Of a stretch of DNA of 64,000 nt, positions 50,801 through 53,800 are shown in pieces (position 1 is the stretch's first letter; each line of letters starts with the position of its first letter). The DNA comes from Escherichia coli. Its GTDB lineage: Bacteria; Pseudomonadota; Gammaproteobacteria; Enterobacterales; Enterobacteriaceae. A program made the position numbers. The stretch lies in assembly GCF_044324785.1 (NCBI RefSeq), contig NZ_CP172127.1; one strand, written 5' to 3'.

Positions 50801-53800
50801 CAGGTTGAGATTAATCATCGGATCCCAGTCGTTTCGATTGAAATCGATAGGACGATTGATGTTACACACGCCCGCGTTATTGACCAGAATATCTAACTGA
50901 CCGAAACGCTCCAGACACCTATTAATAATGGTGCATGCTGCATCAGGTTTTGTTATGTCTATTGTCATAAACTCAACTTCAACGCCTTCATGAGTTAAAT
51001 GCTTTAAATATCTATTATCAGGCTCTTTGATGTCTACCAACAACAGATTAGCCCCTGCTTTGGCCAGAGCCGAGCATAAGCCTCTCCCCAGTTCACCCGC
51101 GGCCCCAGTTACGATGGCCACCTTGTTATGTAATGAAAAAAAATCCAATGAAAAATCTTCAATAGAAAAGCTCATATCACACATTGCTCCTTATGAGTAA
51201 GTAATATTTAAGGTATAATTTAAGTAATTTTTAGATTTCAATAAAAAATATAAACGTTAAAACTCAGCATGAATAATAAACATCAAATCTTATATACATT
51301 TAATAAGTGATGTATCACGTAAAAATATAGCCATCATAGATGTTATGCAGTACGCACAAAAATACAGGCTGGATTTGCTTGCTGATCTATAATCTTTATC
51401 TAAATTACTATTGGCGCTTTGGATAATAACATAAGCATATATTACCTCCTAGCAATAATAGACATAACCTCATATCAAGGTGTCACTGGTAAATAATCGG
51501 ATAAAAGACAGTATCGGTCGGCGCATAGAGCTTCTTCTATTTCACCAGAAGTACACAGCAGGGAACTACCAATCACACGGTTAGTGTCATGGGTGGAGGA
51601 TGCGTCCCGTTCTTTCCCTATAACGGGGATACGCAGTTTTTATCAGTACATGCAGAAAAACCCCTAATTCACATCAATGCAGAAAGCATTTAATAGAAAT
51701 ATACATCGTTTAAGAATTTCAATGAAATCAAGATTATTCTTAAAAATCAGATAATTCACATTTGCATTTTTAGGAAATTATACTATAGTGCACTTAATGT
51801 TCTTGCCTTTATTTTGTAAGTAATACTGGATTTGTAATACACAACTAAGGTATAAAATGTAATGATCTACATTATAAATGATGAAGTAAGATTCAACTCA
51901 TCATCTAATAAGTTAACATCACTCCTTACATCAGAGGAAGTGATACTCACTTATCCTGCGGGAAAATGCTTAAAGTTACTTTTAGATAACGCTTATAGTG
52001 TCGTGTCACACAATCAATTCTTTGAAAAAGTCTGGAGCGATAGCAGTGCCGAAGTCGCAACCAACACTTTATATCAAAATATATCGATGATAAGGCGTTC
52101 CTTTCGTGAAATCAGCTCAGCGACGATATTTAATGATGTTATCAGAACGGTGCCACGTAAAGGCTTCAAAATCAATGAAGAAATCAACATAACTGTTCTC
52201 GACAATAATCACAATGAGAATGAAAGTGTTGAGAGCGAAGAGAGTGAAGAGAATGGCACCCACACTGAAAATATAAATAAAAATCACGTTGCAAAAGGTA
52301 TATTTACCACAAAGAATACATTACTTATAGTTTGTTTTTTTGCTGCATGGGGGATAGTGTATATATCTTCTTATTTTTTCGATATGGCTTTTCAAAGCAA
52401 ATCCCACACTATAAAAAAAATAGATGCTTTCTCAAATTATGCTCAACACCCTACTCAGGAAGGATGTAGTTATTTCTATGATAATAAATACTTTAATTCC
52501 GTAGACATGCTATCACCGATTATTGAAAAATTGCAGAAAATGGAAGTCAACTGCAAAATACATCCTTACATTTACATTGCAACAAATGATAGCATGAGCG
52601 GGTTTTATGCTTTCACCTGTAGTCAAATGTTAAACTCTGAATCACCAAATAATTGCAACTCTCTCTATTATAAAGCGGAGTAATCATATGACTCAAAGAT
52701 ATTTTCTGTTTGCGGGAATAATTTTATGTGCTTTTATTGCAGCAATTCTGAGCCATATTGCGTTTCATCATGCTAATGAACCAGCAGAGCAAAACATATC
52801 ATGTAATGCCCATGTTATTAATTTCACCGATCATACAAAAATGGATCAATATTTTTCGTTAAATATGATTTCTGAAAATAACACAGGAAACATGTATCTC
52901 ACGGGTGCATACACGGTAGATGGAAAAAAGATGGGCTTCATCCGCCGATATGTGAGTTTTACATACAAGAAATTCCGTGATACCGTTTATCTCACCACAG
53001 TTAAAATCCAAAAAATACAAAAAGATGATAACATTAGCGATGAAGTCCTTGAAAATATCACTTCTGATTTCTTCATAAAAGCAGACACTTCAATTAATTA
53101 TTATGTTACGCGTCAAAATGATTATAACTACGTATTCTCTACAGGCAGGACACCACGCTTCATATGTATTACTCACTAACAGCATTGTTGCTCCTGGCGT
53201 TTGTCACGAGTTAATAGCATTCTGATTGCTTTGTTTATACTTTAAGACAATAAAATACCATTCTAATATAAGGTGATTCTTTATCTGTTTATATACCACT
53301 GATAAAACTCTGTCGCTTTCATTGGTTTTGCATATAAGTATCCCTGAACTAATGTCACGTTATTATGAATAAGATATTCTGCCTGGTGAGGAGTACTGAC
53401 ACCTTCTGCAATCGTTATCAAATTTAGTCGATTACTCAGCTTAATAATAATATCTAAAACTGGCGTTTCGTCTTCCGCTGTAGTGAGTGTGTCTATAAAG
53501 CTTTTATCTATTTTAAGATAATCAACAGACAACTTTTGTAGAAGGCCAAGTGAACAATATCCCGTGCCAAAATCATCAACTGCAAATTCACAGCCATGGA
53601 TCCTTAATTCATTTATTTTCTGTAATGCAAGATCAGTATCTTCAACCAGATTGCGTTCGGTAATCTCAAGGACAATGTTAAATTTATCAGATATTGCATT
53701 TTTAATATGTAAAACATCAGCAACAAAATCAGGATGTGCAAGATGTTCCGCGGCAATATTTATCCCAAGGTGAAACGGTTTTTTCACTTTCCAGCTTTGA

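Follow-up and report, generated by a model that had tools for sequence, protein, structure and literature searches.

A probable non-O157 allele of the grvA-fidL regulator cassette of Escherichia coli O-island 47

We describe a pair of adjacent genes, for a membrane-anchored DNA-binding regulator (GrvA) and a small membrane protein (FidL), in a stretch of 64,000 nucleotides (nt) of Escherichia coli DNA (NCBI RefSeq assembly GCF_044324785.1, contig NZ_CP172127.1), hereafter the window. The coordinates of the two genes, their domains, and the upstream elements are collected in Table 1. The regulator gene ends in TAA at 52681-52683, and the ATG of the partner gene begins 5 nt after this stop, at 52688, so that only 4 nt (tcat) lie between them; the Shine-Dalgarno sequence of fidL (GGAG, 52677-52680) is located within the 3′ end of grvA. 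Taken together the two genes have a GC content of 34%, against 47.4% for the window. The order of genes around them is shared by the window, strain MEW, and the O157:H7 strain EDL933: TpsB, TpsA, a 207-amino-acid (aa) hypothetical protein (hyp207), a chaperone-usher fimbrial operon of six genes, a short-chain dehydrogenase/reductase (SDR), the winged helix-turn-helix (wHTH) regulator, FidL, pdeT, dgcT, and pga (pgaABCD). The SDR gene (KduD-like; 50393..51184, minus strand) is divergent from grvA and separates it from the fimbrial operon, the usher gene lies 3.65 kb upstream of the pair, and the gene for the EAL-domain protein, annotated pdeT (vmpA), is convergent with the pair.

Comparison with EDL933 identifies the system. 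The window is colinear with that genome over 23.4 kb at 97.3% identity, and the DNA of the pair itself is 96.8% identical. The regulator agrees with the 270-aa wHTH protein at the syntenic position of O-island 47 (OI-47) at 266 of 273 positions (97%), with a single 3-residue gap, and FidL is identical to its counterpart at 157 of 163 positions (96%); the differences amount to four substitutions in GrvA, six in FidL, and one in-frame insertion of three residues in the disordered linker of GrvA. In the literature the OI-47 genes carry the names GrvA (z1531/ECs1274, 270 aa) and FidL (ECs1273; PMC9214523). Kinch et al. (2022) take GrvA residues 189-270 as the periplasmic domain (PMC9214523), which fits the 270-aa protein of EDL933. 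Since locus, neighbours, and gene order are all the same, at these levels of protein identity, we regard the two as one system, which has already been described and named and hence is not new. The window differs from EDL933 in carrying a non-O157 allele, with an extra SEE in the linker, in the loss of dgcT′-pgaAB-′pgaC beside the island, and in a stop codon in TpsB.

Neither open reading frame (ORF) is a chance one, since both are annotated, are kept in 410 complete E. coli genomes, and have low ratios of nonsynonymous to synonymous substitution rates (dN/dS) against the EDL933 alleles: 0.084 for grvA and 0.118 for fidL. Judged by these ratios, both genes are under purifying selection. In the matched genomes the NCBI annotation pipeline (PGAP) names the regulator "winged helix-turn-helix domain-containing protein" and the partner "FidL," "FidL-like protein," or "YqeJ family protein."

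The N-terminal part of GrvA contains a DNA-binding domain of the OmpR/PhoB type (Pfam Trans_reg_C, PF00486, E = 4.2e-11). Its best match in the PDB by sequence is the DNA-binding domain of Vibrio cholerae ToxR (8b4b, E = 4e-7). Comparison of folds with Foldseek gives the same answer: the ToxR DNA-binding domain and ToxR-DNA complexes come first (E = 9e-9, TM-score 0.88 on the target), followed by the DNA-binding domain of CadC (5ju7, E = 4e-6). NCBIfam yielded only sub-threshold wHTH matches for GrvA, a weak one to CadC among them. An AlphaFold2 model built from 75 homologues has a mean predicted local distance difference test score (pLDDT) of 80.5, rising above 90 over residues 1-113, and in these 75 homologues the motifs NTLYQNIS..RR, in the recognition helix, and T.PR.GF, in the wing, are invariant. 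The domain is followed by an acidic linker, which in the window contains a 9-bp in-frame repeat expansion (at about 52243-52251) that reads ESEESEENG in place of the ESEENG of EDL933; as the linker region is conserved at only 15% from one genus to the other, this expansion is probably neutral.

Beyond the linker, a hydrophobicity scan (Kyte-Doolittle, 19-residue windows) finds one segment of GrvA above 1.6 (maximum 2.03), and the model places a long helix at residues 151-180. The C-terminal part is modelled as strands 193-199 and 202-207, a helix at 218-226, and strands 236-240, 247-253, and 265-271, with pLDDT values of 75-90, and its four cysteines (Cys202, 231, 253, and 265) are invariant among the 75 family members. 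These elements follow the order given by Kinch et al. for VtrA/ToxR-type periplasmic domains without a C-terminal helix (PMC9214523), and the modelled fold is consistent with the co-component family. Going by the family and by the conserved cysteine pairs, GrvA would have its N terminus inside and its C terminus outside.

FidL likewise has one hydrophobic segment in the same scan (residues ∼4-26, maximum 2.51), which coincides with a helix at residues 2-29 in its AlphaFold2 model. The remainder is predicted to form a barrel, whose fold is closest to VtrC and ToxS. Homologues of FidL number 83 cluster representatives at E-values up to 1e-3; Cys39, in the N-terminal strand, is invariant among them, and Cys160, in the C-terminal strand, is at least 90% conserved. 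Precomputed annotations list PF27292 (YqeJ_C) and PF15941 for the FidL cluster, while NCBIfam returned nothing meaningful for FidL and a sequence search of the PDB returned no match; PADLOC found no defence-system match for GrvA, FidL, or hyp207. A preliminary description of this stretch had proposed two ORFs of 273 and 163 aa, the second starting 5 nt after the first, with an OmpR-type winged helix in the regulator, one transmembrane (TM) segment in each protein, and an architecture like that of ToxRS or PsaEF. The coordinates and lengths are exactly as given there, the spacing holds with 4 nt between stop and start, the profile search recovers the winged helix, hydrophobicity and models agree on a single TM helix in each protein, and the likeness to ToxRS is borne out by ToxR as the best match in both sequence and fold and by the identity of the pair with published GrvA/FidL.

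On this evidence we put at about 0.88 the probability that these two genes represent the grvA-fidL cassette of OI-47, in a non-O157 allele, and belong to the ToxR/ToxS-VtrA/VtrC co-component class. No observation contradicts this identification, but four set limits to it. A profile search of FidL against Pfam-A gave no match; Foldseek with the full GrvA model gave wHTH matches only, none of which places the periplasmic domain; a 2023 review of transmembrane regulators gives no partner protein for GrvA; and the RcsB-box match upstream of grvA is at chance level, with seven such sites found in the window against five expected, i.e., no enrichment.

Table 1. Genes, protein domains, and upstream elements of the grvA-fidL locus (positions in the window)
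Feature	Coordinates	Strand	Description
grvA allele	51862..52683	+	273 aa, ATG start
wHTH domain of GrvA, cytoplasmic, OmpR/PhoB-type	51934..52170	+	residues 25-103, Pfam Trans_reg_C
Disordered acidic linker of GrvA	52207..52305	+	residues 116-148, pLDDT <50
Single TM helix of GrvA	52315..52383	+	residues ∼152-174, Kyte-Doolittle and AlphaFold2 helix
Periplasmic sensor domain of GrvA	52384..52680	+	residues 175-273, predicted beta2-alpha-beta3
fidL allele	52688..53179	+	163 aa, ATG start; TM helix residues ∼2-29, predicted periplasmic 8-stranded lipocalin-like barrel 37-162
Intergenic control region between divergent SDR gene and grvA	51185..51861	.	677 bp, AT-rich
Candidate RcsB box CAAGATTATTCTTA, near-palindrome	51729..51742	+	11/14 positions of RcsAB-box consensus
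Promoter-like site: TTCACA (−35), 18-nt spacer, TATACT (−10)	51755..51784	+	10/12 consensus matches

GrvA/FidL is homologous to ToxR/ToxS, beyond the shared layout. With ToxR/ToxS and VtrA/VtrC it has in common the bitopic topology and the adjacency of the two genes, the wHTH being nearest to ToxR and the barrel nearest to VtrC and ToxS. Closer relatives are found in the K-12 proteins YqeI, a full-length homologue of GrvA (32% identity, E = 5e-39), and YqeJ, a full-length homologue of FidL (23% identity, E = 1e-18). YqeI/YqeJ and the MarT/FidL pair of Salmonella have the same architecture and retain the four periplasmic cysteines of the regulator as well as both cysteines of the partner; however, they are paralogues that lie elsewhere, in the remnant of ETT2 (a type III secretion system, T3SS-2) and in Salmonella pathogenicity island 3 (SPI-3), respectively, with other neighbours, and their genes overlap, whereas grvA and fidL are 4 nt apart. 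CadC shares the membrane-anchored wHTH with GrvA but is otherwise unlike it: it is a protein of ∼512 aa with a large periplasmic pH-sensor domain, it uses LysP, and it has no lipocalin-like partner. The Salmonella homologue of GrvA that we found (285 aa, 29% identity) may be MarT, which activates the adjacent adhesin gene misL (PMC9214523). PsaE/PsaF and MyfE/MyfF, too, combine a wHTH regulator in the membrane with a small bitopic protein, both encoded beside a chaperone-usher operon, and they activate these adjacent fimbriae; the likeness to GrvA/FidL is one of setting, the relation being at the level of the superfamily (PMC9214523). Kinch et al. place GrvA/FidL in one co-component superfamily with ToxRS, VtrAC, TcpPH, and PsaEF (PMC9214523).

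Among 5426 complete E. coli genomes, the 2.4-kb region of the pair is matched in 410, in one copy each. Reviews confine OI-47 and grvA to O157:H7, O55:H7, and O145:H28; the genomes that bear the pair include enterotoxigenic E. coli (ETEC) O169:H41, porcine ETEC, and isolates from chicken, mink, deer, and gull. The window allele belongs to this non-O157 group, with nine genomes at an identity of at least 99%, the closest being strain N3, the gull isolate MEW, ETEC O169:H41, and ETEC1738. The preliminary description had set the pair between the fimbrial operon and the EAL gene and had called for a check of its co-occurrence with the operon. The order is correct, except that the divergent SDR gene intervenes before the pair, and co-occurrence is close: the fimbrial operon is present in 401 E. 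coli genomes against 410 for the pair, so the two travel together. Of the ∼400 copies of the island, one lies on a record whose type is given as plasmid; this could be a misassembly or a real transfer.

The same module is found in Pseudocitrobacter sp. RIT415, where TpsA, the 207-aa orphan, the same six-gene fimbrial operon, the SDR, the regulator, and a YqeJ_C protein are present and pdeT is absent; the EAL gene thus falls outside the conserved module. Divergence between the two versions is very uneven. The fimbrial proteins are 75%-89% identical, the SDR 82%, and the N terminus of TpsA 85%, as against 50% for GrvA, 49% for FidL, and 55% for the orphan. The same contrast is seen in dN, which is 0.39 for each of grvA and fidL and 0.07-0.11 for the usher, SDR, and tip-fimbrial genes; by these estimates, the regulator pair diverges approximately four to six times faster than the structural genes. 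Within GrvA, identity is 77% in the wHTH (residues 1-110) but only 15% in the linker (111-151), 22% in the TM segment (152-174), and 41% in the periplasmic domain (175-273). This pattern agrees with the label "fast-evolving" that Kinch et al. gave these systems (PMC9214523) and assigns the rapid change to the sensor half.

To place the pair within the order, we scanned one genome per species of Enterobacterales with our own ORF and hidden Markov model pipeline, which yielded 46 full-length regulators of the family. In 39 of these a FidL-like ORF starts between −80 and +200 nt downstream, and in homologues the genes of regulator and partner overlap by 1-80 nt. In Trabulsiella species two GrvA/FidL-like pairs share a strand at a distance of ∼5.8 kb, and a third is ∼15 kb away (loci L012, 10001-10834 and 15804-16631; L013, 4147-5040 and 10001-10828; also L009/L014), which points to local duplication of these cassettes. 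At another locus (L007), a BLUF-EAL gene (4206-5378) lies 4.6 kb upstream of a pair that is 32% identical to GrvA/FidL, a second case of an EAL gene near such a pair; given the Pseudocitrobacter version without an EAL gene, this proximity is probably coincidence.

What GrvA does in O157:H7 is described in reviews. RcsB activates grvA (PMC8565820, PMC6393859), and GrvA in turn raises LEE (locus of enterocyte effacement) expression, as well as adherence, indirectly, by lowering gadE through gadW. It represses glutamate-dependent (GAD) acid resistance in exponential phase, and the pathway responds to bicarbonate. The LEE and GAD genes, each affected indirectly, are the published targets of GrvA.

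A different view of the target, though not of the molecular identity, would oppose this picture of a global regulator: the main direct job of GrvA/FidL may be local, switching on the OI-47 fimbrial operon, TpsA/TpsB, or both. More generally, such pairs would be primarily local switches of the adhesin operons with which they travel (here the OI-47 fimbriae and perhaps TpsA), the fast-changing FidL barrel and GrvA periplasmic domain of each copy being tuned to a different host or gut cue, and the effects on LEE and GAD would be secondary and specific to O157. We hold this to be a tentative proposal, somewhat less likely to be right than wrong, in its narrower form and in its wider one alike. The conserved neighbourhoods speak for it. 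The order from TpsA through hyp207, the fimbrial operon, and the SDR to the regulator and FidL is maintained in Pseudocitrobacter despite the lack of pdeT and a regulator identity of only 50%; a 49%-identical pair directly follows an Ecp/Mat-type pilus operon (L006); and the 32%-identical pair at L007 stands beside a GerE regulator and a classical chaperone-usher operon. An usher gene lies within 10 kb of 22 of the 46 family regulators, and within 5 kb of 20, an excess with a binomial P ≤ 1e-7 under an assumed background of 5%-15%, which is an estimate, and with orthologous loci that are non-independent. The nearly equal numbers of E. coli genomes with operon and pair fit as well, as do the nine closest alleles, which include ETEC, avian, and porcine isolates in which LEE is, as a general expectation from pathotype, usually absent. 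Precedents by analogy are PsaEF, which acts on psaA, and MarT, which acts on misL. However, all of this is guilt by association; 24 of the 46 family members have no usher nearby, and YqeI/YqeJ of K-12 lie in the ETT2 remnant. Moreover, TpsB has a premature stop in the window, so that at least some of the putative target is in decay next to an intact regulator.

That GrvA acts alone, as a one-component membrane regulator like CadC, with FidL an unrelated small membrane protein encoded downstream, seems to us very improbable. It would account for the missing partner in the 2023 review and for the fact that the published phenotypes, as reviewed, concern grvA only. But the ribosome-binding site of fidL lies inside grvA, with a gap of only 4 nt between the genes, homologous pairs overlap and most family regulators have a FidL-like partner, and FidL itself has the predicted fold of VtrC and ToxS. 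Further, the two proteins diverge from Pseudocitrobacter equally fast, as expected of co-evolving partners, and the periplasmic domains of YqeI and YqeJ are reported as a complex on co-expression (PMC9214523). Still less credible is the view that the pair, as the remnant of an island acquired horizontally, is in decay and no longer functional in this strain, as the TpsB stop and the nearby 6.25-kb deletion of dgcT′-pgaA-pgaB-′pgaC might suggest, since both ORFs are full length with few substitutions and one in-frame linker insertion against EDL933, dN/dS is ∼0.1, and all invariant residues of the family are kept.

The intergenic region upstream of grvA had been described as a 677-bp AT-rich leader. 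Its length and composition stand (31.6% GC overall and 27% outside a core of 48% GC), but a transcribed leader does not: the sole promoter-like site nearby implies a 5′ untranslated region (UTR) of ∼75 nt, and we therefore regard the 677 bp as a control region. It is near-identical in EDL933 and mostly unalignable with Pseudocitrobacter except for a patch at ∼51729-51760, which reads AAGATTATTCTTAAAAATCAGATAATTCACA in the window and holds both an RcsB-box-like near-palindrome and the −35 hexamer. This hexamer, and CAGATAATTCACA just before it, are identical in Pseudocitrobacter. The near-palindrome was scored against the RcsAB-box consensus, which we take to be TAAGAATATTCCTA, and is retained as a candidate because of its conservation with Pseudocitrobacter and the literature: one review has RcsB binding directly, and in a temperature-sensitive manner, to the promoter of grvA (PMC8565820), and another calls this binding "hypothesised" (PMC6393859). 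An Rfam search of 50900-53500 gave only a chance-level match to BsrG (E = 0.76) and no known riboswitch or small RNA in the leader, the predicted fold of the 5′ UTR RNA is no more stable than that of shuffled sequence (z = +0.74), and a terminator scan found none convincing after fidL.

Two further features of this region may be recorded. The 48% GC segment, of 140 bp at ∼51500-51640, is unannotated, has no Rfam match, and is not conserved in Pseudocitrobacter; it occurs at this locus alone in 400 genomes, and we rejected the idea that the core (∼51490-51650) is a repeat or the remnant of a mobile element on the grounds that it is single copy. Immediately before grvA, 51857-51864 (ATGTAATG) form a minimal start-stop ORF (ATG TAA), the stop codon of which shares one base with the ATG of grvA. 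Measured from the AAGG Shine-Dalgarno sequence at 51847-51850, the upstream ATG is at 6 nt and the annotated ATG at 11 nt. EDL933 has an identical arrangement, which Pseudocitrobacter lacks and which may tune translation.

On the far side of the pair, the window has a clean deletion of 6,251 bp relative to EDL933 and MEW, with its junction at 55294-55301 (8 bp of microhomology), which affects 54989-56443. It joins the 3′ end of dgcT (minus strand) to an internal part of pgaC, so that pgaA and pgaB are gone entirely, along with the bulk of dgcT and the 5′ part of pgaC; judging by its sequence, this strain should produce no DgcT and no PGA exopolysaccharide. At the other end of the island, the TpsB gene (ShlB/FhaC-type; 36712-38331, minus strand) has an in-frame stop at codon 140 (37912-37914), whereas the EDL933 gene is intact at 1620 bp. 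Because of this stop, export of the TpsA adhesin (38420-42232) probably fails in this strain. The hyp207 gene (43623-44246, plus strand) heads the fimbrial operon after a very AT-rich gap of 1.39 kb. Its product matches nothing in Pfam, NCBIfam, or PADLOC, and it evolves as fast as the regulator pair with which it is syntenic in Pseudocitrobacter. The alignment of its C terminus with the LuxR-type helix-turn-helix of YqeH is weak and not significant (E = 0.35); hyp207 may be a degenerate FimZ/LuxR-like regulator.

For the pair as the grvA-fidL cassette, a mechanism can be proposed. In a published AlphaFold model of the complex, the C-terminal strand of GrvA and its periplasmic sheet lie, as in VtrA/VtrC, against an edge at which the FidL barrel is open, and experimental complexes include the periplasmic domains of YqeI and YqeJ as well as PsaE/PsaF (PMC9214523). 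We infer that FidL and the periplasmic domain of GrvA would form a heterodimer stabilised by disulfides, and that the barrel or the heterodimer would sense a hydrophobic cue of the gut (a bile salt or a fatty acid, for example) or a cue from the envelope; for these systems, the link with lipid binding is "less clear" in the words of Kinch et al. (PMC9214523). Alternatively, FidL might shield GrvA from proteolysis. Either sensing or protection would then lead to oligomerisation of GrvA and to DNA binding by its membrane-tethered wHTH, with the adjacent fimbrial and two-partner secretion (TPS) adhesin module as a plausible direct target, going by the conserved neighbourhoods.

The distribution in E. 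coli, the synteny with Pseudocitrobacter, the faster divergence of the regulator pair, and the proximity of usher genes go beyond the accounts cited here. In enterohaemorrhagic E. coli, GrvA is among the island-encoded regulators by which envelope and bicarbonate sensing, through Rcs, is coupled both to acid resistance and to attaching-effacing virulence. Its cassette is likewise present in intact form in non-O157 lineages, and the adjacent fimbrial/TPS module is a concrete candidate for a direct target of GrvA.

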